The position numbers and the translations under genes were made by a program. Source: a virus (Duplodnaviria; Heunggongvirae; Uroviricota; Caudoviricetes). Taken from it: a stretch of 42,613 bases of DNA. Shown one piece after another: positions 779 to 41,199 of this stretch (its first letter is position 1; the number at the start of each line of letters is the position of its first letter). The stretch lies in IMG/VR virus record IMGVR_UViG_2703718839_000008; one strand, given 5' to 3'. The notes below the pieces were generated by a model. That model ran no database searches. It was not told the DNA's origin and worked only from the letters and a program-made list of their open reading frames with translations.

Positions 779-1070
779 TCTATCAATGCTATTAGCAGGG
801 AGATATATCACCAGAGTTTAATGTGTGATTTTTTATTTATCGTCGAACCTGGATTGTTTATCATTGGCCTTAACAAAGTTAACGGCTAATAAGATTATTT
901 CCATCACTTCGTGAGAGCTTCATGCCTTGAGAGGATCTCAATTTTCTTTTGCAATGAGACAGGCGCTTCCTGTTGTTATGGTATAGTACCCCGCTATTGA
1001 GCCTCCTGAATAGTGATGCTGAATAACATAACCCCATGATATATCGATAAAATAATCTCTACATTTGAAA

Positions 1071-1193
1071 ATGCACGGTAATTCTGAAATGCAAAAAATC
1101 AACCAAACCAGCGCAATGCCTGAAAAAACTGACGTTCACTGGAGTGGTCGGTTTAGCGTTGCACCAATGCTCGATAGGATGTACCGTTTTTGA
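1071..1193 (+). pseudogene. dusA: Displaced original 5' end of dusA (first about 35 codons) left at the prophage junction
   Basis: Translates MHGNSEMQKINQTSAMPEKTDVHWSGRFSVAPMLD then diverges (RMYRF, stop); near-identical to the N-terminus of the intact dusA at 41200. Confidence 0.85.
1161..1176. other. attL core region (crossover within dusA codons ...APMLD)
   Basis: Host-like sequence ends at gcaccaatgctcgat; the same atgctcga core is found at 41296-41304. Confidence 0.6.
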
Positions 1194-2272: not shown

Positions 2273-2554
2273 TTAGTGATGTTCTTTGCCCTTCTGTTTG
2301 CTTGTTCTGACCTGTTCCCACTCGATACGCCCTTCTTCCCGTCTTTTGTCAATATATTCCGCAAGATCCTGAATGTTGATGCAGCGTTTTGCTTTTTGTG
2401 ATGTACCGATGCGATATGTAGGTACAGGCAACTTACAAGCGTTTGCTTTTGCTTCTGCTGTGGCTGGACTCATACCAAAGTATTTTTGACTAACTGCTGA
2501 GAGTTCAATGTTAGGGGTATTGAATTCAGCCATCAGTAAAAACAAGGTGTTCAT
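2273..2554 (-). CDS. PrtN/AlpA-like small DNA-binding protein, candidate excisionase or regulator
   Basis: MNTLFLLMAEF...MSPATAEAKANACKLPVPTYRIG...LAEYIDKRR recalls PrtN-family/excisionase-like phage proteins; start chosen at the ATG with a GGAG RBS. Confidence 0.5.
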   Translation of the reverse strand: MNTLFLLMAEFNTPNIELSAVSQKYFGMSPATAEAKANACKLPVPTYRIGTSQKAKRCINIQDLAEYIDKRREEGRIEWEQVRTSKQKGKEHH

Positions 2555-2590
2555 AATTTTCTCCATCAAAACCGGCTGCACCCGGGAAAA

Positions 2591-3163
2591 TCATAATTCT
2601 GTGCTGGTGGCAGGAATTAATTTCTGCCAGATAGCGGAAACATATTTTGCCTGATGACGGGCATCGGCCAGGGCGTTGTGCCGTTCGCCATCGAAAGGCA
2701 TGTCCATTTTGGGGTCGAATCCGATGGAACGCCCAAGCGTAACGATCGTGCGTACATCGTGGTCATTCCAGTATGCCCACGGGCAGATTTGTCCTGCTCG
2801 CTCGTAAGCTCCACGTAAAATTACGTTGTCGAAGGTGGCCCCGTTACCCCAGACTTTTAAATATTTTGTATTGTCTGCATGCTGATTAATGAAATGGCTC
2901 AGTTCAGAGAGTGCATCGCTGATCGACAAAGTATCATCAATACAGATTGCAGCTCGTGCTTCAGAGCTCTGTTTCAACCACCACAGGATGGTATCGCCGT
3001 CAGGTGTAGCTCCTTGCTTCATAGCACTGTCCAGGCTAACAACCGTATAGAATTCTTGTCCGATGTCTCCGGTTTCTGGAGTGAAGAACACCGCGCCAAT
3101 GGAAACGATCGGTGCATCCTTATTTTTCCCCATCGTCTCAAGGTCGATCATTAAGTTGTTCAT
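2591..3163 (-). CDS. DEDD-type 3'-5' exonuclease (DnaQ-like fold)
   Basis: MIDLETMG...WGNGATFD...H..ALADA pattern of DnaQ-like exonuclease motifs; stop/start overlap with upstream gene. Confidence 0.6.
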   Translation of the reverse strand: MNNLMIDLETMGKNKDAPIVSIGAVFFTPETGDIGQEFYTVVSLDSAMKQGATPDGDTILWWLKQSSEARAAICIDDTLSISDALSELSHFINQHADNTKYLKVWGNGATFDNVILRGAYERAGQICPWAYWNDHDVRTIVTLGRSIGFDPKMDMPFDGERHNALADARHQAKYVSAIWQKLIPATSTEL

Positions 3164-3972
3164 CACTTCACCTCTTGTGATGGTTTTGCTGCAAAATACT
3201 CGATACCTTTATCCCAGATAGATTTTATGGTCGACCACGTGACTGGCACTTTAATTTCAATACGTCCGCTCCCGTCACAGGTATCGCAATCATCATCGCC
3301 AAAGCATTCCAGGCAGCTTATAAACGTAGTTTCTGAAAATTCACCGGATAGCGCCCCCTTAGCGCCGTTCTCGGCTGTTAGTCTCTTCGGCACCATAACC
3401 CAACCATCCGGAGTTACCGGAGAGTTGCCAGACAGTGCGTTCTGCAATCGTTCCAGCTTAACGTATTCCTGAACCCTGTTTCCGTCGCACGCCTGAAGCC
3501 ATTGCACAGCCTTTTGCGCATCAGTGTGAAAGGCACAAGTGCGACCGTCATCAAATTGCATTTCGTAGAGGTCAGCAACCTGTTTAAACTGCGTTTGTGG
3601 CAACTTGTAAGCCTGGCTTGCAGGTACGGCACCATAGAGCATGGCAGCGCGGCAGGCGTTCCAGCCTTCATCAAAACCGACTATGCCATTATTTAAAGAC
3701 GGACGAGCATCTGGCACCACCGGCACTGGCTTGGCTATATATAGCGGCTGAACATACCAGCCCTTTGATAACCAACTGTCAGCAATGTTTTTACTCCTGG
3801 TTATTGCCGGAATACCTAAGCCATTGTCTGAATGCAGCCATGCCACCGGATCCTCTTCCAGCGATGCCAGAGCAATTTCATAAGCACGGCGCTCAACATT
3901 GTCTCGCACGTCCATGCTGCTGATTCGTTCTTTGATTTCTTTAATCAGTTCTTTATCGGTAAATGTGGTCAT
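3163..3972 (-). CDS. Hypothetical early protein, 269 aa, with C-terminal Cys cluster (zinc-ribbon-like)
   Basis: ORF translationally coupled on both sides; C-terminal CLECFGDDDCDTCDGSG. Confidence 0.5.
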   Translation of the reverse strand: MTTFTDKELIKEIKERISSMDVRDNVERRAYEIALASLEEDPVAWLHSDNGLGIPAITRSKNIADSWLSKGWYVQPLYIAKPVPVVPDARPSLNNGIVGFDEGWNACRAAMLYGAVPASQAYKLPQTQFKQVADLYEMQFDDGRTCAFHTDAQKAVQWLQACDGNRVQEYVKLERLQNALSGNSPVTPDGWVMVPKRLTAENGAKGALSGEFSETTFISCLECFGDDDCDTCDGSGRIEIKVPVTWSTIKSIWDKGIEYFAAKPSQEVK

Positions 3973-4334
3973 TATGCTCCAGCCTCCGGTGCTTTTGGCA
4001 TTACTGCCCAGTGAGTGATGTTGACGTTTTCAAGGTCCCCGACCTGAAATATCCACTGCCATTCTCCGGTTTCTTTTTGCCCCCATGTATACCAGAGAGA
4101 ACGCCAGCCAATCAGCCAGCCTTCTCCATTAGCATCAAATAACAGAACACTTTCATTTGCTGGTGGCAGTTCAGCTGACACTGGTATTATTTTGTTTTCC
4201 AGTGCCGTACATTTAGCTTCAAGCGCATCGAATTTACGTACCAGGTACTCAGCATTTGTTTCGTTCACTTTCAGATCTCGCGGTACACATTTCCCGCGAA
4301 GAAACCCTTCCATTTCGAAAACATTCATGCGCAT
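3972..4334 (-). CDS. DUF551-like phage protein (YfdS-like, 120 aa)
   Basis: Trp-rich C-terminus EGWLIGWRSLWYTWGQKETGEWQWIF; size and position match the CPS-53 yfdS slot. Confidence 0.55.
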   Translation of the reverse strand: MRMNVFEMEGFLRGKCVPRDLKVNETNAEYLVRKFDALEAKCTALENKIIPVSAELPPANESVLLFDANGEGWLIGWRSLWYTWGQKETGEWQWIFQVGDLENVNITHWAVMPKAPEAGA

Positions 4335-4861
4335 TTGCGTAACTCCGATAACTCGTTAAAACGTTCCATAAACATCCCGTAGGCATGGCCTGGTGACAGT
4401 GGAATAACTTTGAACATCTCTGTCGCCGGGATACCTTCCAGTACAGGCCAGAAAGAGCCATCATCAAGCCCGAGATCGCGGCGTTCGGTTGCCAGCATAA
4501 TGAGATCGGCATATTTCACTGGCGTGCTCATAACAGGAGGTAACCCGTATTTCTCACGGATTACGGCGTCTATTTTTTCTTCCATCCGTTTATAGTCAGG
4601 AAGAAGGCGTTTCAGTGGTGCGGGGATGTCCTGGCAATATGCTTCTGTTGCATCATGCATTAACGCTTCAAAAGCAAATTCCTGCGGTACCAGCTGGCTG
4701 CAAAGCACCGCATGTTGGGCGACGCTGTAGAAGTGTGAAAGATGTCCTGCAAAGCGACAGATATTTGAAAGGGAAACCGCGACATCGTTAATAACGATGT
4801 CGTCTTTATTTATCCTGTCATAATAAAAATGCTTCCCGGAAAAAGTTTTAATAAATGACAT
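4325..4861 (-). CDS. HD-domain phosphohydrolase (YfdR-like 5'-nucleotidase family), 178 aa
   Basis: H..H and HD motifs (FAGHLSHF..., MHDATEAY); GGAG RBS before MSFIKTF; size matches YfdR. Confidence 0.6.
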   Translation of the reverse strand: MSFIKTFSGKHFYYDRINKDDIVINDVAVSLSNICRFAGHLSHFYSVAQHAVLCSQLVPQEFAFEALMHDATEAYCQDIPAPLKRLLPDYKRMEEKIDAVIREKYGLPPVMSTPVKYADLIMLATERRDLGLDDGSFWPVLEGIPATEMFKVIPLSPGHAYGMFMERFNELSELRKCA

Positions 4862-4988
4862 TTTATTCTCCACGTATATGCGCTGCACCGCGCTGAATTC
4901 TGGTAAAAGGAAGCCCTCACTATCCGGCGATTATTGAGTAAATTATGTTTCCATAAATGCCCCCGCAGGGGCATTTGCAGTAATGAAA

Positions 4989-5813
4989 TCAGGCGGTGAA
5001 AGTACCAATAAAGGTTTCTACTTTGCTGTCTTTAAATTTCTCAACAAGCAGATCACGAAATTCGTTAGCCATTTCTTCCTGCACCGCTTCCAGCTGAATA
5101 ATGCGCAGAACCAGTACAGGACGATCGCCAGTGATAATGCTGAGGCGTAATTTAAACGGACGTTCTTTAAGGCCTTCAAACGGAACGCATTTAAATTCAA
5201 ATGCCACTGGCATAATGTCTTTGGTCTTCGCTTCGACAGACTCCATCAGGGAGCGTTTGCCGCTGAAGTCATTATCTTCAAAATCAGCGGTCTGGTTTGC
5301 TTCAATCGTGATTTTACGGACTGCCGCAGCCGCTTTTGTTGCCTGAATGGCGTCACCATTCGCATCAAAGCCCACAAGGTAGTCGGCCCAGTCTTCAATC
5401 CATTCTGCCAGTGACTTCTGGGAGTTACGCTCGCCGTTAACAGACAACAGAGCAGAGAACGGTGCTGTCTTTTTCAGTTTGAGAGTGGCGGTGTTATCTG
5501 CGTGACCTGGTTCATCAATAGTACCCAGGTTAAGCACACTAACGGCACGCATATTATCAGCATCGATAAAGCAGCGGGTGCCTTCATCTGCAAGATCTTT
5601 AGAATAACGGGTAAAATCATCGATGCTGGCAGTGGAAAGCGCGCCACGGAAACGGAAGCGATTTAAATTAAATTTTTCCAGATCATGAATGCGGAAATTC
5701 TCAGGCAATGCCACAGCATCGGCACCAATCTTACTGATAATTTCATTAACACCCTGAGCAGAAATAAGGGCATGGATTTGATTAATTGCGGTTGAGTCTA
5801 AGTTCTGAGACAT
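4989..5813 (-). CDS. DUF2303/YfdQ-like phage protein, 274 aa
   Basis: Length and operon position match CPS-53 YfdQ; GAGGA RBS. Confidence 0.5.
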
Positions 5814-5878
5814 AATAAGTCCTCACTATATTAAGATATTCAGTGATGAGATAAATAATCAGTTAATTAAGAACGATA

Positions 5879-6241
5879 TTAATGACCTGCTGCGCGGAGT
5901 TTTCCGTCAGGTTCACCGGCAAGAGTCAGTAATTGTCCCTGGTCTTCCTGCAGAATAGTCAGGCGACCACCGCGATTGACATACATCGGCGTTTCGGTGG
6001 TGTCTTCTTCGGAAATTTTCCCGCGGTTAGTCGGGCGAACATATGAGAGTTTGTGTTTGATTTTCACACGGTTCTCATCAAATGGTTCGATTTCCAGGTT
6101 GAGTGAGACCTTCCCTTTGGTTTTCGTGTTCATCACACCGGAAGCGACTTCACTGAGAACTGCGCCGATTTTGGTTTCAAATACGCCGCCGTCCAGCTCC
6201 CCGATAAATGCCTGCACATCAGTACTGCGTTCGCTAGCCAT
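5879..6241 (-). CDS. YfdP-like hypothetical protein, 120 aa
   Basis: Internal ATG (MASERS...) with GAGGAG RBS; the longer ORF-track N-terminal extension runs through the GC-rich leader and is not protein-like. Confidence 0.55.
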   Translation of the reverse strand: MASERSTDVQAFIGELDGGVFETKIGAVLSEVASGVMNTKTKGKVSLNLEIEPFDENRVKIKHKLSYVRPTNRGKISEEDTTETPMYVNRGGRLTILQEDQGQLLTLAGEPDGKLRAAGH

Positions 6242-6289
6242 TTTGCTGCTCCTCATCATATCGACCCTGCAAGGTCGGTTGGTTTCTCC

Positions 6290-6560
6290 ACAAAACAGAG
6301 AAGAACACCTGCGGTGGCAGCCGCCCGGATGGATTGGGTTATGAGCCCGTCGTCCGGTGATGCTCTTCTCTGTTTTGTAAAAAGAGCGGTACCAGCCGGA
6401 AGCAAGTGTACAAACTGGTACCGCGAGGACTACACACAGCATAAAGTTGTGGTGCCGGGTGCCTCCCGGTGCCTGGCGAAGGTTGCACACCAGGCGGGTG
6501 GGTATCCACAGAAGGTCGACTGTCAGCCTCAACCTTAACCCGCGTGCGCTGAGCCGCATT
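6290..6560 (-). promoter_or_regulatory. GC-rich structured leader in the leftward early transcript; candidate cis-acting RNA (antitermination or processing element)
   Basis: Long-range inverted repeat caaaacagagaaga (6297-6310) / tcttctctgttttg (6373-6386); perfect hairpin ggtaccag...ctggtacc (about 6399-6433); boxA-like CGCTCTTTTTACAA on the minus strand; no credible ORF. Confidence 0.35.
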
Positions 6561-6678
6561 CACCACAACGCTAAGGATTCTCTCTGGTTGAAAATACTTA
6601 GCTGTTATGTGCCTGTCTTTTCACCACTTCAGGCTCGGTGGTATCCTTTTAAGCCCGTATACATAAAAGGAAAATCAA

Positions 6679-7234: not shown

Positions 7235-7264
7235 AATGTAGGATATCCAACATGTGAGTGTCAA
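7235..7264 (-). promoter_or_regulatory. pL-like early leftward promoter
   Basis: Minus strand TTGACA (7264-7259), 18-bp spacer, TACATT (7240-7235), overlapped by an operator; mirror image of pR. Confidence 0.5.
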
Positions 7265-7350: not shown

Positions 7351-8004
7351 TCAAAAATCCATTATTACTTGTTTGACAAGACCAACTATTCTGCAGTTCT
7401 CACCGCATTCAATAGTTTTATAGTTAGGATTTAGTGGGACGAGATACCTGTTCGGCCAGTCCTCAACAAATTTTTTGAGTGTCGCTTCTTGCCCACCATT
7501 GATATGGGCAACAACGATTTTTCCGTTAATACACTCTGTATCAATAATATCTGGCTCTACGATAACGATAGAACCTTCTGGTATCGATGGTGAGCCGAGG
7601 GGATTGGTCATTGAATCACCACGGACCCGTAGTGCAAATGCCATTTCTGATACAAGGGCGGTAGTATAAACCCACTCTTCAGCATCTTCTTTCCTGACAC
7701 CAGGCTCCGTCATTGTCCATGAACCCGCCTGAACCCACGAGATGAGGGGGACTTTTTTAACTGCGAATATTTCAGGTTTTAGATTTATCTTTGGTTCAGG
7801 CGAGCCTTTTCCGCTAACAAGCCACAGAGGATCGCATTTAAGTGCGTTGGCTAGGGCTTGAAGGTTGGCTCCATTTGGTTGGTAGTCGTCCTTTTCCCAT
7901 CCAGTAACCGTGACACGGTTCACACCAGTCAAATCAGCCAGTGCTTGTTGTGTCAGGTTCAGTTCTTTTCGCCTTTGGCGAATACGATCACTCATGTTCA
8001 TCAT
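7351..8004 (-). CDS. CI-type prophage repressor (N-terminal HTH, C-terminal S24 LexA-like autopeptidase)
   Basis: N-terminal ...LNLTQQALADLTGVNRVTVTGWE HTH; C-terminal GDSM Ser and downstream Lys; divergent from the Cro-like gene with operators between. Confidence 0.85.
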   Translation of the reverse strand: MMNMSDRIRQRRKELNLTQQALADLTGVNRVTVTGWEKDDYQPNGANLQALANALKCDPLWLVSGKGSPEPKINLKPEIFAVKKVPLISWVQAGSWTMTEPGVRKEDAEEWVYTTALVSEMAFALRVRGDSMTNPLGSPSIPEGSIVIVEPDIIDTECINGKIVVAHINGGQEATLKKFVEDWPNRYLVPLNPNYKTIECGENCRIVGLVKQVIMDF

Positions 8005-8067
8005 GTAGGCAATCCTACCACATGCCCATGTAGGATTCTTGACATTGGTATGTTGGATATCCTACAT
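8003..8067. promoter_or_regulatory. OR operator cluster (three sites)
   Basis: atgtaggcaatcctacca (8003-8020), atgtaggat half-site (about 8029-8037), atgttggatatcctacat (8050-8067). Confidence 0.6.
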
Positions 8068-8068
8068 T
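8039..8068 (+). promoter_or_regulatory. pR-like early rightward promoter
   Basis: TTGACA (8039-8044), 18-bp spacer, TACATT (8063-8068), overlapping an operator. Confidence 0.55.
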
Positions 8069-8099: not shown

Positions 8100-8297
8100 A
8101 TGCGGAAATCCGACGTGATTAATTATTTCGGCGGAGTTTGTAAAACCGCCGAAGCCCTAGGTATTAAGCATCCGTCTGTTTCAGAGTGGCCTGAGATTAT
8201 TCCTGAAGGCCGAGCGTACCAGTTAGAAAAAATTACTAACGGGAAACTGAAAGTTGACGTGTCTTTATATCAAAAGACTAACAGTGCTGCGGCATAA
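8100..8297 (+). CDS. Cro-like / YdaS-like small HTH regulator
   Basis: 65 aa; first gene after pR; GGGAGA RBS. Confidence 0.6.
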   Translation: MRKSDVINYFGGVCKTAEALGIKHPSVSEWPEIIPEGRAYQLEKITNGKLKVDVSLYQKTNSAAA

Positions 8298-8324: not shown

Positions 8325-8909
8325 GTGGGTAAAGAACCTGAATGGAAAGTTGATAAACAACCAGCATGGCTGGTGGCAGCAATACGAAGAACGATTGCTG
8401 ATTTACCTCATGGCTATGAGGAAGCAGCAGAAATTCTTGGTTTGTATAAATCTGATGATATCACCCCAGCAAAAGATCAATTGCATAACAGACTGCGTAG
8501 CGGTGGGGATCAAATTTTTCCACTTGAGTGGGCCATGGTTTTACAGGATGCCAGTGGTACCAGGCATGTAACAGATGCAATAGCCCGTCGTAGTAATGGG
8601 GTGTTTGTGCCGCTGGTGGTCATTGATGACATTGACAATGGTGACATTAATCAGCGGCTGATGGAGTCAATAGAATGGATTGGCAAGCATTCCCAGTACT
8701 TACGCAAGGCAACTGCTGATGGAGTTATTGACCAAGCTGAGCGTGAGCAAATCGAAGAGAACAGCTACCAAGTAATGGCGAAGTGGCAGGAGCATTTAAC
8801 ACTGTTATTTCGTGTTTTTTGTGCGCCGGAAAAGAGTAACGCCCGCGAGTGTGCAGCTCCGGGCGTCGTGGCGTCGATTGCTTCTGGTTGTGGAGAAACT
8901 AACGCATGA
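8325..8909 (+). CDS. CII-like / YdaT-like early regulator, 194 aa
   Basis: GTG start with GAGGAA RBS; position after Cro-like gene; family assignment from recall only. Confidence 0.4.
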
Positions 8910-9244
8910 ACAGTTTAACAACACACTACCGTCGCTCGCAACTGATTGCGCTTCCTGTACCGGGTGGAAAAGCGAAGGTGGAGTATTGCTATGCAGTGAA
9001 TGTACCAGGTGACAGGGAAATTGTAACCCACAGCTTTGCAGAGTGGGCTGTGGGGGATTTCAACCGGCAGAAGGAGACAGTCCTTTGCGACAAGTTAACC
9101 GCTGGTTCAAAGATCACTACGGAGTGCCCGTCAGAGTCATTCGTTGGGAACCGGAAACACAACGGGTTATCTACCTCCGCGAAGGCTATGAGCATGAGTG
9201 CTTCAGTCCGCTCGAACAGTTTCGTCGTAAATTCAGGGAAATAG
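8906..9244 (+). CDS. Hypothetical protein (frame uncertain; alternative overlapping frame 9043-9264)
   Basis: ATGA overlap with upstream stop; ends 10 nt before the O-like start; the 3' half looks more protein-like in the other frame. Confidence 0.35.
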
Positions 9245-9253
9245 AGGTCGGTC

Positions 9254-10195
9254 ATGAGCACTAAATTAACCGGCTATGTATGGGATGGTTGCGCAGCGTC
9301 AGGCATGAAATTATCCAGCGTGGCAATTATGGCCCGCCTGGCTGATTTCAGTAATGACGAAGGTGTGTGCTGGCCATCAATTGAAACCATTGCCCGCCAG
9401 ATTGGCGCGGGGATGAGTACCGTCAGAACGGCTATCGCACGGCTGGAAGCAGAAGGCTGGTTAACGCGTAAGGCGCGTCGCCAGGGTAACCGCAATGCGT
9501 CGAATGTTTATCAGCTTAACGTTGCGAAGCTTCAGGCAGCGGCATTTTCTCAACTGTCAGATTCTGACCCGTCAAAATCTGACGCATCAAAATCTGACCC
9601 GTCAAAATTTGATGCGTCGAAATCTGGCAAAAAAGCGGGTTTTCACCCGTCAGAATCTGGCGGGGATCCGTCAGTAAAATCAAAACATGATCCGTCAGAT
9701 AAAAAACCTTCTCGTCCGGACGCTTCGCAACCGGACACGCAGACGGCTGAACAGGATTTTTTAACTCGCCATCCTGATGCGGTTGTATTCAGCCCTAAAA
9801 AACGCCAGTGGGGGACGCAGGATGATTTGACCTGCGCACAGTGGCTCTGGAAAAAAATCATCGCCCTGTACGAGCAGGCTGCCGAATGTGACGGCGAGGT
9901 GGTTCGTCCCAAAGAACCGAACTGGACAGCCTGGGCAAACGAAATTCGCCTGATGTGTGTGCAGGATGGTCGTACTCACAAACAAATCTGCGAGATGTAC
10001 AGCCGCGTCAGCCGCGATCCGTTCTGGTGCCGTAACGTGCTCAGCCCGTCGAAGCTGCGGGAAAAATGGGATGAGCTTTCCCTGCGCTTATCGCCGTCCG
10101 TCAGCACATACACAGAAAAACGTGAAGATCCGTACTTCAAATCCAGTTACGACAACGTGGACTACAGCCAGATCCCGGCAGGATTCAGGGGGTGA
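9254..10195 (+). CDS. Replication initiator (lambda O-like role) with origin iterons inside the gene
   Basis: N-terminal winged-helix-like region; internal DNA direct repeats encode repeated SDPSKSDASKSDPSKFDASKS linker. Confidence 0.6.
   Translation: MSTKLTGYVWDGCAASGMKLSSVAIMARLADFSNDEGVCWPSIETIARQIGAGMSTVRTAIARLEAEGWLTRKARRQGNRNASNVYQLNVAKLQAAAFSQLSDSDPSKSDASKSDPSKFDASKSGKKAGFHPSESGGDPSVKSKHDPSDKKPSRPDASQPDTQTAEQDFLTRHPDAVVFSPKKRQWGTQDDLTCAQWLWKKIIALYEQAAECDGEVVRPKEPNWTAWANEIRLMCVQDGRTHKQICEMYSRVSRDPFWCRNVLSPSKLREKWDELSLRLSPSVSTYTEKREDPYFKSSYDNVDYSQIPAGFRG
9556..9662. repeat. Origin iterons: 15-bp-spaced direct repeats of GTCAAAATCTGAC-like units
   Basis: Copies starting near 9556, 9571, 9586, 9601, 9616 and 9648. 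Confidence 0.65.
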
Positions 10196-10197
10196 TC

Positions 10198-10686
10198 ATG
10201 AGTCTTTTGAATGAAGTTCAGAAATTCATTGAAGCCCATCCGGGGTGTACTTCCGGAGACATTGCGGATGCTTTTGCAGGTTACTCACGGCAGCGCGTTC
10301 TGCAGTCAGCAAGCAAGTTACGTCAGAGTGGGCGTGTGGCTCACCGTTGTGAAGGAGATACACGCAGACATTTCTCGCGCCTGACTGAGAGAGCGCAGGA
10401 GCCGGAACCACAACCAGTTCGTGAAACCAGACCTGTGCGCAAGTTCTATGTCGGCACTAACGACCCCCGGGTGATTTTGTGCCTGACCCGCCAGGCTGAA
10501 GAACTGGAGTCGAGGGGCTTATACCGTCGTGCTGCAACGGTGTGGATGGCGGCATTCCGTGAAAGCCACTCCCAGCCAGAACGAAACAATTTTCTGGCGC
10601 GTCGTGAACGGTGTTTACGGAAAAGCAGTAAGCGGGCTGCATCAGGTGAAGAGTGGTATCTCTCAGGGAATTACGTGGGGGCTTAA
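10198..10686 (+). CDS. Putative regulator with PerC-like C-terminal motif
   Basis: AEELESRGLYRRAATVWMAAF resembles the PerC/Pch signature; ATG just after O-like stop. Confidence 0.35.
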   Translation: MSLLNEVQKFIEAHPGCTSGDIADAFAGYSRQRVLQSASKLRQSGRVAHRCEGDTRRHFSRLTERAQEPEPQPVRETRPVRKFYVGTNDPRVILCLTRQAEELESRGLYRRAATVWMAAFRESHSQPERNNFLARRERCLRKSSKRAASGEEWYLSGNYVGA

Positions 10687-11339
10687 TGAGTAATAAATAT
10701 TGCCAGGCGCTGGCGGAACTGCGGAACAAACCAGCCCATGAACTGAAGGAAGTGGGCGATCAGTGGCGCACGCCGGACAACATTTTCTGGGGAATTAACA
10801 CCCTGTTTGGCCCGTTTGTTCTGGATCTGTTCACTGACGGTGATAACGCCAAATGTGCTGCGTATTACACGGCGGAAGACAACGCGCTGGCGCATGACTG
10901 GTCAGAACGCCTTGCGGAGCTTAAAGGTGCTGCCTTTGGTAATCCCCCATACAGCCGCGCCAGTCAGCATGAGGGGCAATACATCACCGGCATGCGTTAC
11001 ATCATGAAGCATGCCAGTGCCATGCGTGATAAAGGCGGGCGCTATGTTTTCCTGATCAAAGCTGCCACCAGCGAAGTGTGGTGGCCGGAAGATGCAGATC
11101 ATATTGCTTTTATTCGCGGGCGTATTGGTTTTGAACTGCCTGCCTGGTTTATCCCGAAGGATGAGAAGCAGGTGCCGACAGGCGCTTTCTTCGCTGGTGC
11201 TATTGCTGTTTTCGACAAGACCTGGAAGGGACCGGCAATCAGCTACATCGGGCGCGATGAACTTGAGGCATGTGGTGAGGCCTTTCTGGCGCAGGTTCGC
11301 CAGCAGGCAGAAAAACTGGTCAGGGAGATGGCGGCATGA
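10686..11339 (+). CDS. Phage N6-adenine DNA methyltransferase (Dam-like), orphan
   Basis: GNPPYS catalytic motif; no adjacent endonuclease. Confidence 0.7.
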   Translation: MSNKYCQALAELRNKPAHELKEVGDQWRTPDNIFWGINTLFGPFVLDLFTDGDNAKCAAYYTAEDNALAHDWSERLAELKGAAFGNPPYSRASQHEGQYITGMRYIMKHASAMRDKGGRYVFLIKAATSEVWWPEDADHIAFIRGRIGFELPAWFIPKDEKQVPTGAFFAGAIAVFDKTWKGPAISYIGRDELEACGEAFLAQVRQQAEKLVREMAA

Positions 11340-11662
11340 CGACGTTAACTCAATGCCAGCAGCAGGTGCTGGATATGCTGATTTCTTATCAGAAAGAACG
11401 TGGCTTCCCGCCAACCAATCAGGAGGTGGCAACCATGCTGGGATACCGTTCAGTGAATGCAGCGGTGGAGCATCTTCGCGCACTGGAGAAAAAAGGCGTC
11501 ATCACGATAAAGCGTGGCGTGGCCCGGGGCATCACGCTTCATACCGCGGTGAAGGACGACGACAGCGAGGCGGTCGGGATTATCCGCGCACTGCTTGCCG
11601 GTGAGGCAAACGCCAGGCTGCGTGCAGCCCACTGGTTACATGAGAGGGGCCTGAAAGTATGA
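11336..11662 (+). CDS. LexA N-terminal DNA-binding-domain homolog lacking the S24 cleavage domain, 108 aa
   Basis: Aligns by eye to the LexA N-terminus (LT.RQQEV.D.I.....G.PPT..E.A..LG.RS.NAA.EHL.AL..KGVI.I..G..RGI.L); ends after the DNA-binding domain. Confidence 0.7.
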   Translation: MTTLTQCQQQVLDMLISYQKERGFPPTNQEVATMLGYRSVNAAVEHLRALEKKGVITIKRGVARGITLHTAVKDDDSEAVGIIRALLAGEANARLRAAHWLHERGLKV

Positions 11663-12048
11663 AGCTAATACTGCCTTTTCCGCCCAGCGTGAACACGTAC
11701 TGGCGACACCCCAACAAAGGGGCGCTTGCAGGTAAGAGCCTGATAAGCGCGGCGGGGCGAAAATTCCAGAGCGCAGCGTGTGCAGCCATCATTGAGCAGT
11801 TACGTCGTCTGCCGAAACCAACGTCGGCACCAGCTTCAGTGGAGATCGTGTTGTTTCCTCCGGATAACCGGCTTCGCGATCTGGACAACTATAACAAGGC
11901 GCTGTTTGACGCCCTGACCCACGCGGGTGTGTGGGTGGACGACAGCCAGGTGAAAAGAATGCTGGTGGAGTGGGGGCCGGTTATCCCGGAAGGGAAGGTC
12001 GAAATCACTATCAGTAAGTACGAGAAAACGGCGGGTGCAGCCGCCTGA
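11659..12048 (+). CDS. rusA: RusA-family Holliday junction resolvase
   Basis: MKLILPFPPSVNTYW...RDLDNYNKALFDAL...VWVDDSQV matches the RusA signature. Confidence 0.8.
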   Translation: MKLILPFPPSVNTYWRHPNKGALAGKSLISAAGRKFQSAACAAIIEQLRRLPKPTSAPASVEIVLFPPDNRLRDLDNYNKALFDALTHAGVWVDDSQVKRMLVEWGPVIPEGKVEITISKYEKTAGAAA

Positions 12049-12067
12049 TTAAGAGGAGAAACGAAGT

Positions 12068-12877
12068 ATGAATAATCTGATGGTTATTGATGGTATTGAA
12101 GTTCGTCGTGATGCTTATGGGCGTTACAGCCTGAACGATCTGCATCGCGCAGCAGTAGCATCTGGTGCAAATGCCAGAACCAAGGAGCCAGGAAAGTTTC
12201 TTTCCAGCCAACAAACTGTTGAGCTTGTTCATGAATTAACCAACACCCAGAATTTGGGTGTTGACCCGGTGAGTGTGATTCATGGGGGAAATGAACGGGG
12301 AACGTATGTCTGTAAGGAACTGGTGTATGCCTATGCAATGTGGATCAGCCCGTCATTCCATCTGAAGGTGATCCGTACTTTCGATATGGTAACCAGCGCA
12401 CCGGAAAAATTATCCGGACAGGCTGCTGACAAGATGCAGGCTGGCGTGATTCTGCTGGACTTTATGCGCCGGGAGTTAAATCTGTCTAACTCATCTGTGC
12501 TTGGGGCCTGTCAGAAACTCCAGGAGGCTGTTGGCTTACCGAATCTGGCACCGCGCTATGCCATTGATGCACCTGCTGACGCGCCTGATGGCTCAAGCCG
12601 CCCGACGCTGTCGCTGAGTGCACTGCTGAAGCAGTATGGTATCCGCCTGACGGCTAATCAGGCATATCACCAGATGGTGAAGCTGGGGATCGTCGAGCAG
12701 CGCGAACGATACAGCCGTACCGGGATTAACAACATCAAAAAATTCTGGTCGCTGACGGCGAAAGGCTGCATGTTCGGCAAGAACATCACCAGTCCCGCAA
12801 ATCCGCGTGAGACGCAGCCGCATTTCTTCGAATCCCGATTCCCTGAGCTGTTAAAGCTGCTCGATACCGTTCATTGA
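12068..12877 (+). CDS. KilA-N domain protein (antirepressor-like)
   Basis: N-terminal YSLNDLHRAA...GTYVCKELVYAYAMWISPSFHLKVI KilA-N signature. Confidence 0.65.
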   Translation: MNNLMVIDGIEVRRDAYGRYSLNDLHRAAVASGANARTKEPGKFLSSQQTVELVHELTNTQNLGVDPVSVIHGGNERGTYVCKELVYAYAMWISPSFHLKVIRTFDMVTSAPEKLSGQAADKMQAGVILLDFMRRELNLSNSSVLGACQKLQEAVGLPNLAPRYAIDAPADAPDGSSRPTLSLSALLKQYGIRLTANQAYHQMVKLGIVEQRERYSRTGINNIKKFWSLTAKGCMFGKNITSPANPRETQPHFFESRFPELLKLLDTVH

Positions 12878-12878
12878 G

Positions 12879-13874
12879 GTGACCGTGAGAGCACTACTGA
12901 CCCCTGAAATAGCCCCGCGTATGGGGATTGTATTGTTCAGACCAGGTTCAGAGCTGATGCCCCTGTTTATGCAGGGGCGTGTCCTGCTGGAGCCTGAGCC
13001 GGAACGTTATTCATCTTTCGCCAGTGGTGCCGTTCCGGCGGCATCACAACCGCTGGCGGATGATCCTGCCGTTAGGGCCGTGTTCCGCAATGAGGCAGTG
13101 ATCCGTCGTGCTGGTGGCGTGGAATGTCTTGAAAGCTGGTTACTTCGTGAAAAAGGCTGCCAGTGGCCTCATTCCGACTGGCACAGCGAGAACATGACCA
13201 CAATGCGACACGCGCCGGGCGCGATCCGTCTGTGCTGGCACTGCGATAACCAGCTGCGCGATCAGTTCACGGAACGGCTGGAATCAATGGCAACGGATAA
13301 CTGTGCCCGCTGGGTGTTGTCTGTAGTCCGTCTGGATCTCGGTTTTGATGATAACCATGCCGTGACAATGCCGGAACTGTGCTGGTGGCTGATTCGTAAT
13401 GACCTGGCGGATGCCTTACCGGAAAGTGCAGCCCGTAAGGCACTGAGATTACCGAAGCCTGTTGTGCCGTCTGTCACCCGGGAAAGTGACCTTGTGCCTT
13501 CGGTTCCTGCCACCAGCATCATCCAGGATAAGGCGAAAAAGGTGCTGGCGCTGAAAGTGGATCCGGAGTCGCCGGAGTCTTTTATGTTACGCCCAAAACG
13601 CCGCCGCTGGGTTAATGAAAAGTACACGCGCTGGGTTAAGACACAGCCGTGTGCATGTTGTGGAAAGCCTGCTGATGATCCCCACCACCTGATAGGCCAC
13701 GGTCAGGGTGGAATGGGTACAAAAGCGCATGACCTCTTTGTGTTGCCTTTGTGCAGAAAGCATCACGACGAGCTGCATGCGGATACCGTGGCATTTGAAG
13801 AGAAGTATGGCTCTCAGCTGGAGCTGATATTTCGTTTTATCGATCGTGCGCTGGCAATTGGCGTATTGGCGTAA
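12879..13874 (+). CDS. DUF968-family nin-region protein (putative HNH-like C-terminus)
   Basis: C-terminal CACCGKPADDPHHLIGHG...LCRKHHDELH; GTG start. Confidence 0.6.
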   Translation: MTVRALLTPEIAPRMGIVLFRPGSELMPLFMQGRVLLEPEPERYSSFASGAVPAASQPLADDPAVRAVFRNEAVIRRAGGVECLESWLLREKGCQWPHSDWHSENMTTMRHAPGAIRLCWHCDNQLRDQFTERLESMATDNCARWVLSVVRLDLGFDDNHAVTMPELCWWLIRNDLADALPESAARKALRLPKPVVPSVTRESDLVPSVPATSIIQDKAKKVLALKVDPESPESFMLRPKRRRWVNEKYTRWVKTQPCACCGKPADDPHHLIGHGQGGMGTKAHDLFVLPLCRKHHDELHADTVAFEEKYGSQLELIFRFIDRALAIGVLA

Positions 13875-13887
13875 GTGGAGAACGAGC

Positions 13888-14640
13888 ATGAACCTTGAAG
13901 CCTTACCAAAATATTACTCCCCAAAATCTCCAAAATTGAGCGATGACGCACCGGCGACAGGCTCAGGTGGTTTAACGATTACGGATGTGATGGCTGCGCA
14001 GGGGATGGTGCAGTCGAAAGCACCGCTTGGGTTTGCCTTATTCCTGGCAAAAGTTGGTGTTCAGGATCCTCAATTTGCGATTGAAGGTCTGCTCAATTAC
14101 GCGATGGCACTGGATAACCCGACATTGAACAAATTGAGTGAAGAAACCCGGTTACAGATCATCCCTTACCTTGTGAATTTTGCCTTTGCTGATTATTCCA
14201 GGTCTGCGGCAAGTAAGGCTCGCTGTGAGCATTGTGCTGGTACTGGATTTCATAATGTATTGCGCGAAGTGGTGAAACACTCCAGAAGCGGGGAATCTGT
14301 TATCAAGGAAGAGTGGGTGAAGGAACTATGTCAGCATTGTCATGGTAAGGGAGAAGTCAGCACAGCGTGCAGAGGGTGTAAGGGTAAAGGTATTGTCCTG
14401 GATGAAAAAAGGACCCGGCTTCATGGCACGCCTGTTTATAAGATTTGTGGGCGTTGCAATGGAAACCGGTTTAGCCGTTTACCAACCACACTGGCGCGGC
14501 ATCATGTCCAGAAGCTGGTACCAGACCTGACGGATTATCAGTGGTACAAAGGATATGCAGATGTCATTGATAAACTGGTTACAAAGTGCTGGCAGGAAGA
14601 AGCATATGCAGAGATACAATTGAGAAAGGTGACAAGATAA
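13888..14640 (+). CDS. Late-gene antiterminator Q-like protein
   Basis: Multiple CxxC zinc-binding pairs; immediately upstream of the PR'-like promoter and terminator; GGAG RBS at MNLEAL. The ORF could instead start at 13846. Confidence 0.65.
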   Translation: MNLEALPKYYSPKSPKLSDDAPATGSGGLTITDVMAAQGMVQSKAPLGFALFLAKVGVQDPQFAIEGLLNYAMALDNPTLNKLSEETRLQIIPYLVNFAFADYSRSAASKARCEHCAGTGFHNVLREVVKHSRSGESVIKEEWVKELCQHCHGKGEVSTACRGCKGKGIVLDEKRTRLHGTPVYKICGRCNGNRFSRLPTTLARHHVQKLVPDLTDYQWYKGYADVIDKLVTKCWQEEAYAEIQLRKVTR

Positions 14641-14671
14641 ATGGTTTTCGCCGAAGATGACGACATGATGC

Positions 14672-14700
14672 TTGCATTTTTCAAAAAATATGGATAAGAT
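14672..14700 (+). promoter_or_regulatory. PR'-like late promoter (with presumed qut region)
   Basis: TTGCAT, 17-bp spacer, TAAGAT, directly after the Q-like gene. Confidence 0.55.
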
Positions 14701-14744
14701 TTTCCCAACGATGGGCTTTGTATGTCTACCGTTGATAAGATTTA

Positions 14745-14772
14745 GGAACCCGCCACTGAGCGGGTTTTTTGT
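14745..14772 (+). terminator. tR'-like terminator about 40-65 nt downstream of PR'
   Basis: cccgc-cactga-gcggg followed by TTTTTT. Confidence 0.7.
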
Positions 14773-14892
14773 ACCTGTAAACTTGGTGCAGTACAGTAAA
14801 CACGCTGGTGGTCGTGAATACTGACTTTTTATCTTGCTGGATTTTTAGACAAGAGTTATTGGTATGTCATGTTAACCAGAAGGGAAAAAGAC

Positions 14893-15096
14893 ATGCTAAA
14901 ACAGCAAGATATGACAGAAACCGCCGCCGCAGTCCTTCATTTCTTACCTGCTGACAAGTGGGTAACGCCACGCATGATGACGAGAACTACCGGAGTAAGC
15001 GAAGCCCGGTGCCAGTTAATACTGACTCAGTTAGTTCTGGCGGGTCTGGCGAAGGATAACGGCGGGTACGGGAATAAATTCAGACGCTGCCAGTAA
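14893..15096 (+). CDS. Small putative winged-helix protein (FaeA/PapI-like architecture), about 67 aa
   Basis: ...TRTTGVSEARCQLILTQLVLAGLAKDNGG... reads as an HTH recognition helix plus wing; ORF-track start at 14869 is also possible. Confidence 0.35.
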   Translation: MLKQQDMTETAAAVLHFLPADKWVTPRMMTRTTGVSEARCQLILTQLVLAGLAKDNGGYGNKFRRCQ

Positions 15097-15246
15097 TGGC
15101 GGTTTCCTGCTGTGAAAATGGGCGGCTGGTGGGTGTTGGTAGCACCTGCCAGCCATTCGCTCATGCTTACTGGTCACAAGCGAACCACGGCCCACTGCTT
15201 TAGCGCAAAAGCAGAGTGAGCCTACCAGAGTTACGCTTACTGATCC

Positions 15247-16299
15247 ATGAAAAATACTGTAAAAATAAACAGTGTTGATTTAATCAACGCTGATTGCCTG
15301 CATTTTATTCAGTCCTTGCCTGATGATTCCATTGATCTGATTGTTACCGATCCGCCGTACTTCAAAGTGAAGCCCAACGGCTGGGACAATCAGTGGAAAG
15401 GGGACGAAGATTACCTGAAGTGGCTGGACTACTGTCTGGCCCAGTTCTGGCGGGTACTGAAACCAGCCGGAAGCCTTTACCTGTTCTGTGGACATCGCCT
15501 CGCATCTGATATCGAGATCATGATGCGTGAACGTTTCAACGTGCTTAACCATATCATCTGGGCGAAGCCGTCCGGACGATGGAACGGGTGTAATAAAGAA
15601 AGCCTGCGGGCATATTTCCCCGCTACAGAGCGCGTTCTGTTTGCTGAACATTACCAGGGGCCATATCGCGGCAAAAGTGACGGCTATGCGGCAAAAGAAA
15701 GGGAACTCAAACAGCACATAATGGCACCGCTGATATCGTATTTCAGGGATGCTCGTGCCGAACTGGGTATAACGGCAAAACAAATTGCCGAAGCCACAGG
15801 TAAGAAAAATATGGTTTCCCACTGGTTTGGTGCCAGTCAGTGGCAGTTGCCGAATGAGGCTGACTATCGGAAGTTACAGGCACTGTTTTCCCGTATAGCG
15901 GCAGAGAAGTTTCAGGAACAACAACTGGAACAACCACACCACCAGCTGGTGGCATCTTATGATTCACTGAATCGCAAATATTCTGAATTGCTGGATGAGT
16001 TTAAATCTCTCCGGCGCTATTTCTCCGTATCAGTCTCCGTGCCTTATACCGATGTCTGGACGCATAAGCCCGTTCAGTTCTACCCGGGTAAACATCCGTG
16101 CGAGAAACCGGCGGATATGCTCCGGCAAATAATCAATGCCAGTAGTCGACCTGGTGATCTGGTTGCTGATTTCTTTATGGGATCCGGTTCCACAATAAAA
16201 GCAGCAATGGCGCTGGGGCGTCGGGCGTTAGGTGTTGAACTTGAGTCAGAGCGGTTTAATCAGACGGTGAAAGAGGTAAGTGAACTGGTGGGGAAATAA
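15247..16299 (+). CDS. DNA methyltransferase (beta-class N6A/N4C type), orphan, in the late region
   Basis: N-terminal DPPY motif (LIVTDPPYF) and C-terminal FMGSGST AdoMet motif; no adjacent nuclease. Confidence 0.75.
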   Translation: MKNTVKINSVDLINADCLHFIQSLPDDSIDLIVTDPPYFKVKPNGWDNQWKGDEDYLKWLDYCLAQFWRVLKPAGSLYLFCGHRLASDIEIMMRERFNVLNHIIWAKPSGRWNGCNKESLRAYFPATERVLFAEHYQGPYRGKSDGYAAKERELKQHIMAPLISYFRDARAELGITAKQIAEATGKKNMVSHWFGASQWQLPNEADYRKLQALFSRIAAEKFQEQQLEQPHHQLVASYDSLNRKYSELLDEFKSLRRYFSVSVSVPYTDVWTHKPVQFYPGKHPCEKPADMLRQIINASSRPGDLVADFFMGSGSTIKAAMALGRRALGVELESERFNQTVKEVSELVGK

Positions 16300-16375
16300 T
16301 TCTGGTGGCCACGTTGCGTGGCCTTTTTATTTCCAACACAGCACCCGCAAATATCGCGAGGTGAGAGATGACGAA

Positions 16376-16711
16376 ATGCCTCATAACCCAAATACCTGGC
16401 CGGACTGGCTGGAGTTGTTTCAGAGCTGGTGGCGTGGAGACACACCGCTGGGTGCAGTGATTATGTCGATCGTTATGGCTGGTTTGCGCATCGCCTATTT
16501 TGGCGGTGGTGGTGGCTGGAAGCGAAAAACGCTCGAGATTTTGCTATGTGGCGCTCTGACGCTGACCTTTGCATCCGCTCTTGAATATGTCGGATGGCCT
16601 AAATCGCTTTCTGTTGCCATTGGTGGTGGCGTGGGGCTGATCGGTGTCGATGCTATTCGTGGGGCTGCAATGCGAGTAATCGGTAACAAATTTGGTAGCT
16701 CGAAGGAGTAA
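16376..16711 (+). CDS. Holin (lambda S-like family)
   Basis: Transmembrane helices with charged C-terminus; GAVIMSIVMAGLRIAYFGG resembles lambda S GIGAILAFAMAYLRG; directly upstream of endolysin. Start uncertain. Confidence 0.65.
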   Translation: MPHNPNTWPDWLELFQSWWRGDTPLGAVIMSIVMAGLRIAYFGGGGGWKRKTLEILLCGALTLTFASALEYVGWPKSLSVAIGGGVGLIGVDAIRGAAMRVIGNKFGSSKE

Positions 16712-16714
16712 TTT

Positions 16715-17191
16715 ATGCAGGCACTAAATTCCCAGCGTAAAGCTTTCCTGGATATGGTGGCATGGTCAGAAGGAACGGATAACGGGCGACAACCGACACG
16801 TAACCACGGTTATGATGTTATTGTTGGTGGCGAACTGTTCACTGATTACTCCGATCACCCTCGCAAACTTGTCACGCTAAACCCCAAACTCAAATCAACA
16901 GCTGCCGGACGTTACCAGCTTCTTTCACGCTGGTGGGATGCTTACCGTAAGCAGCTTGGCCTGAAAGACTTCTCTCCCAAAAGCCAGGACGCTGTTGCGC
17001 TGCAGCAGATTAAGGAACGTGGCGCTTTGCCGATGATTGATCGCGGTGATATCCGTCAGGCAATCGACCGTTGCAGCAATATCTGGGCTTCACTGCCGGG
17101 TGCTGGTTATGGCCAGTTCGAGCATAAGGCTGACAGCCTGATTGCAAAATTCAAAGAGGCTGGCGGAACGGTCAGAGAGATTGATGTATGA
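16715..17191 (+). CDS. R: Endolysin, lambda R-like lytic transglycosylase
   Basis: [51 protein letters not shown]... is near-identical to lambda R as recalled. Confidence 0.9.
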
Positions 17192-37468: not shown

Positions 37469-37903
37469 GTGTTTTTTAGTCCATCTTTAAATATTTTTGT
37501 GAATCCTGCGCTTAAGGATGACTACATCAATGAAAATTCATGGCCAGATGATGCTGTTGAAGTTGATGAGCAGGTGTATATTGAGTTTTCCGGATTACCG
37601 CCGAAAGGAAAAATCCGTATCGCTGGGGAAAATGGTTTTCCTGCATGGTCTGAAATTCCACCACCAACGCATGAGGAACAGATTGCCGCAGCCGAATTGA
37701 AAAAACAGCAATTGATTAATCAGTCCAACGAATATATGAATACCAAGCAATGGCCTGGTAAAGCGGCTATTGGTCGTCTGAAAGGTGAGGAACTGGCGCA
37801 ATATAATTTGTGGCTGGATTATCTGGACGCACTGGAACTGGTTGATACCTCCAGTGCTCCAGATATTGAATGGCCTACGCCTCCGGCAGTTCAGGCCAGA
37901 TGA
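37469..37903 (+). CDS. Tail fibre assembly protein
   Basis: GTG start after GGAGGG; C-terminal ...LDYLDALELVDTSSAPDIEWP typical of Tfa chaperones. Confidence 0.7.
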   Translation: MFFSPSLNIFVNPALKDDYINENSWPDDAVEVDEQVYIEFSGLPPKGKIRIAGENGFPAWSEIPPPTHEEQIAAAELKKQQLINQSNEYMNTKQWPGKAAIGRLKGEELAQYNLWLDYLDALELVDTSSAPDIEWPTPPAVQAR

Positions 37904-38468: not shown

Positions 38469-38925
38469 TATTTAGCCCTCACCAGAAAGTTAAATGCAAT
38501 ATTTCGCGGTCTGACAGCAACAAAATTCACACCATCACCCACAGAGTTACTGGTGAAATTAAATCGTGAAAATCCTGGCTGATTTCCGGCGATGCCATCA
38601 TGAAAGTTAATTGCGTGTCCCGCACCTCCGCCTATATTCCCGGCAAACTGAGAAAAGTTTGTAGCTTCCTGCCAGCTTAATAATTCGCGACCACCATCGG
38701 CACCTCGCCCGTCATCCCAGATACGAATGAAATCACCGCGGGCTTCAGGTAATACCAGTGAAGGAAACACTTTCGCCAGCACAGGGTAATCAGAGGCAGA
38801 AAATTTCGCCCCGTTGAACTTCAAAAACACCATACTGGACCAGCTGTCGATTACAGTATTTGGCATTGCAGCGGACGGCCAGAAGAACGGAACGCCAATA
38901 GCTGGAGCACCTTCTCCCAAACCAA
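38468..38925 (-). CDS. Alternative variable tail-fibre C-terminal segment, start-less, expressed only after inversion
   Basis: Reads from the right recombination site as LGLGEGAPAIG..., joining in frame to ...ENLGLGE; no own start codon. Confidence 0.65.
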
Positions 38926-41111: not shown

Positions 41112-41199
41112 TACACGACCTCGTTATTTCGGGTTCCCATAAAACGTGGGAACCTGTGCGGGAACCTAACGCGAGAAAAATAGCCTGAAATGTTCAAAA

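Follow-up and report, generated by a model that had tools for sequence, protein, structure and literature searches.

The genes yfdP, yfdQ, yfdR and yfdS take their names from Escherichia coli K-12, where they lie in prophage CPS-53 (KpLE1), and the sole activity of this block with an experimental footing is interference of YfdR with host DnaA, seen on overexpression of the K-12 orthologue. YfdR binds domain I of DnaA (Phe46) and competes with DiaA and DnaB (Noguchi and Katayama 2016, PMC4776307). The same study reports that multicopy yfdQ and yfdR, together with either yfdS or yfdT, suppresses over-initiation mutants and inhibits initiation at oriC, that yfdP is dispensable for this effect, and that the nucleotide affinity of K-12 YfdR is much lower than that of YfbR. 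It also cites a weak sensitivity of yfdQ and yfdS deletion mutants to methyl methanesulfonate (MMS) and H2O2, and its authors propose a role in the ancestral phage comparable to that of lambda P (PMC4776307). Here we describe a copy of this block in IMG/VR virus record IMGVR_UViG_2703718839_000008. The whole stretch of 42,613 nucleotides (nt) is referred to below as the window, and the block, seven minus-strand genes, occupies its positions 2273-6241.

A second point of comparison is the ‘no Rec module, high Chi’ class of lambdoid phages, which have no recombination (Rec) module and whose Chi sites number 8 or more in the active orientation and no more than 6 in the inactive one (Zheng et al. 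2025, Genome Res, PMC12315714, by Zheng, Casjens, Davidson, Amundsen and Smith). The type phage, LLS, shows RecBCD-enhanced growth, carries a yfdR/yfdQ/yfdP cluster and an O-only replication module, and is without an N homologue. These authors judged yfdR, yfdQ and yfdP unlikely to encode hidden recombination proteins, since the genes are also present in phages with full Rec modules, such as ArgO145 (PMC12315714).

We think it likely that the block in the window is a commonplace accessory segment of the early-left (pL) unit, made up of exchangeable cassettes, in a complete lambdoid prophage integrated at dusA that leaves recombination to host RecBCD by way of Chi. From right to left its genes are as follows, with lengths in amino acids (aa):

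5879-6241, minus strand: yfdP, 120 aa, first half of the YfdP-YfdQ cassette
4989-5813, minus strand: yfdQ, 274 aa, DUF2303 family
4325-4861, minus strand: yfdR, 178 aa, HD-domain 5'-deoxynucleotidase-like protein
3972-4334, minus strand: yfdS, 120 aa, coiled-coil N-terminus and DUF551-like C-terminal domain
3163-3972, minus strand: g5, mosaic protein of 269 aa, YfdT-like N-terminus and Cys-cluster C-terminus
2591-3163, minus strand: DEDDh (DnaQ-like) 3'-5' exonuclease, 190 aa, PF16473
2273-2554, minus strand: PrtN-family excisionase (xis), 93 aa from the ATG, PF11112

All seven open reading frames (ORFs) start with ATG and have a Shine-Dalgarno-like motif 5-8 nt upstream, and the genes and sizes proposed by an earlier model from the letters alone (the sequence-only reading) are real. 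That reading described all seven as translationally coupled. The description holds for the run from yfdR to the exonuclease gene, where neighbours overlap (yfdR/yfdS by 10 nt, yfdS/g5 and g5/exonuclease by 1 nt each), but not for the other junctions, which are gaps of 65 nt (yfdP-yfdQ), 127 nt (yfdQ-yfdR) and 36 nt (exonuclease-xis). An overlapping 226-aa ORF at 5879-6559, which extends yfdP upstream, is probably not real.

The likeness to CPS-53 is stronger than had been claimed. The products are 99.2 (YfdP), 98.9 (YfdQ), 97.2 (YfdR) and 98.3 per cent (YfdS) identical to their K-12 counterparts over the full 120, 274, 178 and 120 aa, and the order P-Q-R-S is kept. The intergenic layout and the 10-nt yfdR/yfdS overlap are also the same. 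Judged by these identities, the first four genes are the CPS-53 yfdPQRS block itself, beyond mere resemblance. The two loci part at the fifth gene, which is not yfdT: residues 1-42 of the 269-aa protein match YfdT (81 per cent identity) and the rest is unrelated. CPS-53, which sits at argW, continues with a 101-aa yfdT and then the excisionase gene torI, whereas the window, in dusA, continues with the 269-aa mosaic, the DexA-like exonuclease and the PrtN-type xis. CPS-53 is cryptic and the window prophage complete; CPS-53 is a decayed relative of the ST64B/SfV/mEp460 prophage type. The block is already known, annotated in thousands of genomes, with named genes and published phenotypes for the K-12 copy.

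Of 5426 complete E. coli genomes, 3501 have at least a portion of the block and 89 have the whole seven-gene version. The block is almost entire in phages PhiR47_1, PhiR40_1 and PhiR55_1 and partial in mEp460, SfIV, cdtI and many Shiga toxin (Stx) phages. In a set of 30 E. coli viral contigs whose flanks were long enough, YfdP, YfdQ and YfdR are together in every one (30/30), YfdS in half (15/30), and the exonuclease and Xis are both within reach in 9/30. By these co-occurrence counts the block is a string of independently exchangeable cassettes and not one machine, and the single functional operon of the sequence-only reading gives way to a mosaic. The early-left regions of ST64B, SfV/SfIV, mEp460 and LLS have the same plan as the window: YfdP-YfdQ-HD hydrolase, then mosaic genes, a 3'-5' exonuclease and xis. 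The ST64B protein is about 58 per cent identical to the window's YfdQ, and the ST64B xis belongs to another family.

YfdP and YfdQ stay strictly linked in a wider sample. YfdP matches phrog_204 and the newer PF27127 (it has no family in the Pfam copy searched), and YfdQ is a DUF2303 protein (E = 2e-92). We sampled ten diverse YfdQ-encoding phages, of Salmonella, E. coli, Pseudomonas, Vibrio, Halomonas, Xanthomonas, Psychrobacter and Acinetobacter. In each of the ten, the gene immediately upstream of yfdQ, on the same strand, encodes a YfdP homologue (hmmsearch E from 8e-67 to 3e-14), which makes YfdP-YfdQ a strict two-gene cassette, always inherited together. In just two of the ten, ST64B and Pseudomonas phage pAN, are YfdR and the exonuclease present as well. 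Many proteobacterial phages carry the cassette in a region devoted to DNA metabolism. Its neighbours are Gam/RecT/Exo/SSB in Stx phage PA2 and Erf/YqaJ/HNH/SSB in Xanthomonas phage CP2; Vibrio phage 1.232.O has a Rad52-like gene nearby, and in Vibrio phage 24E35.2 the cassette adjoins SSB and a DEDDh exonuclease. Phage JC1, which encodes a DUF2303 protein, also has RecT and YqaJ. That DUF2303 protein was detected in purified JC1 virions, and the authors of the JC1 work proposed that it binds DNA.

The YfdQ family comprises 1777 clusters at 50 per cent identity. In the best 150 of the 1777 representatives, lengths are nearly all 265-288 aa (a few are shorter, apparently partial) and there are no gene fusions. 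Ten polar residues are near-invariant (E46, R56, T61, Y70, H104, Q132, E140, D141, R166 and R223). A YfdQ homologue about 40 per cent identical has been solved with 36 chains (PDB 9o7m, ‘YfdQ Protein’), and its sequence belongs to a Xanthomonas phage similar to CP2; the YfdQ homologue region of CP2 itself is 2639-3892. The first YfdQ chain of 9o7m is C, which means at least two other chains of different identity, and these other chains have no homology to YfdP or to the block's other six products. An AlphaFold2 (AF2) model of YfdP is weak (pLDDT 65) and has a helix with a three-strand sheet; the most conserved stretch, TPMYVNRGGKLTILQEDQGQL, is predicted to be disordered, which would be compatible with folding upon contact with a partner.

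None of the seven products matches Red-beta/RecT, Erf, Rad52-like, Sak4, gp2.5, lambda Exo/RecE or Gam/Abc2 families in Pfam, PHROGs or NCBIfam. The absence of Exo/Bet, RecT and Erf reported by the sequence-only reading is therefore upheld; it had also named placement in well-characterised recombination families as the finding that would speak against it, and the profile searches made no such placement. A profile of 113 YfdQ sequences aligned with hhalign to RecT, Erf and a Rad52-like protein gave probabilities below 1 per cent, and fold searches with AF2 models of YfdQ and YfdP returned weak sub-domain matches only, with no annealing or SSB fold. We accordingly rejected a hidden recombinase in the block, the profile, hhalign and fold searches all being negative. 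Nor was a Rec module found elsewhere in the genome, either in the PGAP annotation of a collinear prophage of enterotoxigenic E. coli (ETEC) or in Pfam scans of the window ORFs that this annotation does not cover. The recombination-related genes of the window are RusA, a Hin-type invertase and Int only.

Chi (GCTGGTGG) is the commonest octamer of the window. There are 19 sites against 1.73 expected, 16 on the plus strand and 3 on the minus strand; none of 100 shuffles reached 19, and the largest shuffled count was 6. The plus-strand sites begin at these positions:

2603, 4159, 8369, 8612, 11961, 13110, 13381, 14804, 15125, 15945, 16425, 16929, 21724, 22080, 28019, 39815, plus strand: Chi

Ten of the 16 fall at 8369-16929, within the early-right/nin/lysis region, which adjoins the terminase end (~19.3 kb), the right genome end. 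Two lie inside the block, at 2603-2610 (plus strand) in the exonuclease gene and at 4159-4166 in yfdS, and leucine codon usage cannot explain these two because both are antisense to the genes. With no Rec module, a 16/3 split of orientations and enrichment toward the right end, the window falls within the class of LLS, and it resembles that class also in its O-only replication and in having no recognised N homologue. The missing recombinase is most likely better explained by the Chi excess: the phage would do without one of its own because it is packed with Chi and most likely uses host RecBCD. For replication the phage has one O-like gene and neither a helicase nor a loader. This O-only arrangement lies at 9254-10195 (plus strand), with 10192-10686; in K-12 the corresponding arrangement survives as the remnants yfdO and yfdN. 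How O-only lambdoid phages replicate is not understood (PMC12315714).

The 93-aa product, taken by the sequence-only reading for one more poorly characterised accessory protein, went unrecognised there as an excisionase. It matches PF11112 with 82 bits against a cut-off of 24 and phrog_1300 ‘excisionase’ with E = 1e-39 (it would be 102 aa long if the GTG at 2581 were used), and its mEp460 homologue, two cargo genes from int, is annotated as excisionase. The gene is the last before attL, and int is at the opposite end (40014-41111). By profile and position, the protein is a PrtN-family excisionase, or recombination directionality factor. The two ends are marked by an imperfect direct repeat:

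1068-1174, plus strand: attL-side copy, 107 bp, 83 per cent identical to the right copy
41197-41303: right copy, 5' end of intact dusA, which starts at 41200

Integrases specific for dusA typically bring a new start for the gene with them, and the left copy corresponds to the original 5' end of dusA, now displaced. An annotated dusA prophage in ETEC H10407 is collinear with the window; it combines early regions of the lambdoid kind with a head of HK97 type and a contractile tail (ST64B/SfV type). On its repeats and collinearity, we read the window as a whole lambdoid prophage of ~40 kb, integrated in dusA and of the ST64B/SfV/mEp460 type.

Profile searches also confirmed the HD-domain protein and the DnaQ/DEDDh exonuclease that the sequence-only reading had recognised. 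YfdR matches phrog_318 ‘deoxyribonucleoside 5' monophosphate phosphatase’ (E = 2e-109) and PDB 2gz4, the HD protein Atu1052 (E = 3e-13), and retains the HD residues H50, H69-D70 and later Asp residues. It scores 24.3 bits against PF12917 (YfbR-like, cut-off 25.9) and 19.9 bits against NCBIfam PRK03826 (cut-off 122). The exonuclease matches PF16473 at full length (254 bits against a cut-off of 27), phrog_255 ‘exonuclease’ and PDB 8kel (E = 3.5e-9), the DexA structure cited in PMC12153337. It is 30 per cent identical to T4 DexA, with D7, E9, D112, H162 and D167 all conserved, and by these residues it is a DEDDh 3'-5' exonuclease of the Rv2179c-like/T4 DexA-like family. Compared with T4 DexA it is 37 residues shorter and without the extra loops; the dimer/tetramer residues S87 and D90 of DexA and its Trp W152 are kept as S80, D83 and W132, whereas D169, which reads the 5-hydroxymethyl group, is Ser146 here. 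It is not an orthologue of M. tuberculosis RNase AS (Rv2179c), since it scores 16 bits against a cut-off of 200 for the NCBIfam RNase_AS equivalog. Stray DnaQ-type nuclease genes near int are common and are not counted as Rec module genes (PMC12315714).

These identities bear on three other ways to read the block. One would make YfdP-YfdQ a new single-strand annealing or mediator complex that, with the exonuclease, replaces an Exo/Bet-type module. The block does occupy the usual position of a lambdoid Rec module, the cassette adjoins SSB, Erf, YqaJ-type or DEDDh exonuclease genes in other phages, large oligomers such as the 36 copies of the solved YfdQ homologue are typical of annealing proteins, and the JC1 protein is a proposed DNA binder present in virions. 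Yet the same cassette occurs together with complete or partial Rec modules in PA2, CP2, 1.232.O and JC1, as it does in ArgO145 (PMC12315714), and neither sequence, profile nor fold is like RecT, Erf, Rad52, RecA-like proteins or gp2.5. A 3'-5' exonuclease would moreover remove the 3' tails that annealing needs, and the strong, oriented Chi excess points to RecBCD. We regard this reading as improbable, and the recombination function suggested by the sequence-only reading is unlikely given the full Rec modules that accompany YfdP-YfdQ elsewhere. Still more doubtful is a role in defence or exclusion, with the exonuclease as an HREX-type nuclease that degrades the 5-hydroxymethylcytosine (5hmC) DNA of T-even phages and so protects the lysogen. 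The E. coli DexA homologue EcD, which does not have the D90 tetramer residue, protects against T4 by cutting 5hmC DNA (PMC12153337). Its termini as deduced from published primers (MIDTET..., ...TIPETYD) resemble those of the window protein (MIDLET..., ...LIPATSTEL), a comparison of termini only, and the equivalent of W152 is conserved. However, S80 and D83 are both retained, the equivalent of D169 is Ser146, PADLOC gave just a generic Cas-associated DEDDh match (E = 2e-5), and a gene beside xis in a repressed early-left unit should be silent in the lysogen. We rejected an EcD-type HREX identity, which calls for loss of D90 while the Trp and Asp/Glu that read 5hmC are kept, on the D90 and D169 positions, and the anti-defence function of the sequence-only reading finds nothing in PADLOC beyond that generic match.

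Nucleotide scavenging is the one rival with some support, and although we consider it on the whole rather unlikely it is compatible with an accessory early-left block. The exonuclease would release deoxynucleoside monophosphates (dNMPs) from DNA ends, which YfdR would dephosphorylate, much like T4 DexA and the 5'-deoxyribonucleotidase of T5 in lytic phages. The roles of T4 DexA include the scavenging of host DNA (PMC12153337), and the window's DexA-like enzyme has an intact active site; YfdR matches phrog_318 and the HD family of YfbR-like proteins. In pAN the genes for the exonuclease and YfdR adjoin and overlap, both are present in ST64B, and in the window both are inside the single run of overlapping genes. 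Against this, the Pfam score of YfdR is just under the family cut-off and the two genes are found together in just 2 of the 10 diverse YfdP-YfdQ phages. Degradation of host DNA is not known from temperate lambdoid phages, and the parallel with the T5 enzyme is drawn in part through a PHROG name. The nucleotide-pool manipulation proposed by the sequence-only reading is in this sense possible for the exonuclease and the HD hydrolase, but the sole experimental data on YfdR point to DnaA binding (PMC4776307). A further idea, which we hold to be a long way from probable, is that YfdP-YfdQ is an uncharacterised, widespread phage DNA-transaction complex, perhaps one that works with YfdR to take DnaA/DnaB from oriC in O-only phages with neither loader nor recombinase. 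We entertain it because the cassette is strict, the family has 1777 clusters and near-invariant polar residues, and the homologue structure has 36 copies. If true, a YfdP-YfdQ-YfdR complex would help explain the replication of P-less lambdoid phages.

If the block is an accessory part of the early-left unit, as we favour, its course after induction might be as follows. Loss of the repressor would let transcription from pL extend past the leader and reach the block genes. YfdR, assisted by YfdQ and by either YfdS or the YfdT-like protein, may then hold down initiation on the host chromosome during phage replication; the YfdR, YfdQ and YfdS orthologues are 97-99 per cent identical and the fifth gene has a YfdT-like N-terminus, and by analogy with K-12 we infer that the window's YfdR is a DnaA-binding initiation inhibitor. 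The exonuclease would trim 3' ends, Xis with Int would excise the prophage from dusA, and the co-oriented Chi sites would recruit host RecBCD-RecA recombination, with concatemers as the product. The order of these events is itself inferred.

Several points weigh against this account. The part that the block genes would have in phage growth is deduced, and YfdP and YfdQ have no assigned activity, YfdP being dispensable in K-12. The inhibition of DnaA was seen with multicopy overexpression in K-12, the authors themselves warn of a possible artefact, and deletion of yfdQRST gave no initiation phenotype (PMC4776307). The invariant polar residues of YfdQ suggest an enzyme or nucleic-acid binder with an activity of its own, beyond that of a helper of YfdR. 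RecBCD-enhanced growth was measured for LLS only and would extend to the window prophage by analogy, and the promoter, leader RNA and terminator described below are consensus or marginal matches. As found, the block matters little: it is annotated, the K-12 phenotypes are published, and the absence of a recombinase was explained in 2025 by Chi and RecBCD. YfdP-YfdQ is very common in phages of Gammaproteobacteria, however, and the window is a clean, complete example in which to study it and O-only helicase loading.

YfdS and the 269-aa protein are both mosaics whose C-terminal domains (DUF551 or a putative zinc ribbon) can be exchanged. YfdS matches phrog_583 (E = 1e-81) and reaches 21.6 bits against PF04448 (DUF551), with a cut-off of 22. 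The 269-aa protein, left without a family by the sequence-only reading, has no relative in Pfam, NCBIfam or PDB and matches phrog_60, of unknown function; at E <= 0.1 its only Pfam match is a spurious one to Anticodon_3, and Ead_Ea22 is not matched. In an alignment of 20 relatives the protein opens with a YfdT-like segment (1-45, the part with 81 per cent identity to K-12 YfdT over 42 aa); a stretch that varies comes next, then the linker PVPVVP, a GWNACRAAMLYG motif, a conserved module (116-178), the linker SGNSPVTPDGW and a C-terminal domain. The C-terminal Cys cluster noticed earlier is real (C220, C223, C229 and C232) and forms a CxxC-x5-CxxCxGxG putative zinc ribbon, in place of which close relatives have DUF551. 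A shared N-terminus with a variable, swappable remainder has been described for Ea22 variants (PMC10834534). Like YfdS and the 269-aa protein, lambda Ea22/Ead-type proteins join a common N-terminal segment to a middle part that varies and to C-terminal domains, DUF551 among them, that move between proteins, whereas a zinc-ribbon C-terminus, putatively present in the 269-aa protein, is not described there. One phage record names a homologue of the 269-aa protein ‘Ea22’. We rejected membership in the Ea22/Ead family, as the Ead_Ea22 signature is absent and only the mosaic behaviour is common.

The early-left position given by the sequence-only reading agrees with the surrounding features, in that the block lies leftward of a cI-like repressor and downstream of a candidate pL:

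7235-7264, minus strand: candidate pL, TTGACA-18-TACATT, consensus scan, 10/12 matches
8039-8068, plus strand: candidate pR, identical hexamer pair, consensus scan, 10/12 matches
7351-8004, between pL and pR: cI-like (LexA-like) repressor, HTH_3 and Peptidase_S24
8100-8297: P22-type Cro
6377-6599, minus strand: STnc100-like structured RNA, Rfam RF02076, full-length model, marginal at 49.1 bits against a gathering threshold of 47 (E = 1e-7)
2244-2269, no strand assigned: GC-rich hairpin with an 11-bp stem directly after the xis stop, from a terminator scan and the sequence

The STnc100-like element is situated in the leader, between candidate pL and yfdP, and ends in a terminator-like hairpin and U-run about 140 nt upstream of yfdP. 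It could be a prophage small RNA, act as a terminator within the leader, or belong to an antitermination signal based on RNA. No N gene was recognised in the window phage, and no second STnc100-like or put-like element was found downstream of pR. The U-run of the 2244-2269 hairpin is good on the plus strand and just UUUUC on the minus strand; the hairpin is likely a two-way terminator that closes both the block and the convergent cargo genes. The 127-nt yfdQ-yfdR spacer (4862-4988, minus strand) contains a GC-rich hairpin of 9 bp, AAAUGCCCC-UGCG-GGGGCAUUU, with a weak U-tract after it; this could act as a partial internal terminator. A structured RNA in this spacer was rejected, the fold z-score of -1 being not significant.

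The space between attL and xis (1175-2272) is a variable cargo spot. In the window it carries plus-strand ORFs at 1319-1855 (178 aa) and 2052-2225 (57 aa), the same sizes as gp23 and gp24 of mEp460, and the 178-aa protein has no match in Pfam or PADLOC. The same spot holds Panacea-domain and CoiA-like genes in ETEC H10407 and a PanA/PanT toxin-antitoxin pair in PhiR47_1, and it looks like a moron or defence hotspot. At the other end of the prophage, a Hin/Gin-type serine invertase gene (38997-39560, plus strand) lies beside oppositely oriented fragments of tail-fibre and tail-fibre-assembly genes (37469-38920), and window positions 37715-38925 align in reverse to the ETEC H10407 prophage. The invertase and the inverted tail-fibre segment point to an invertible host-range switch.

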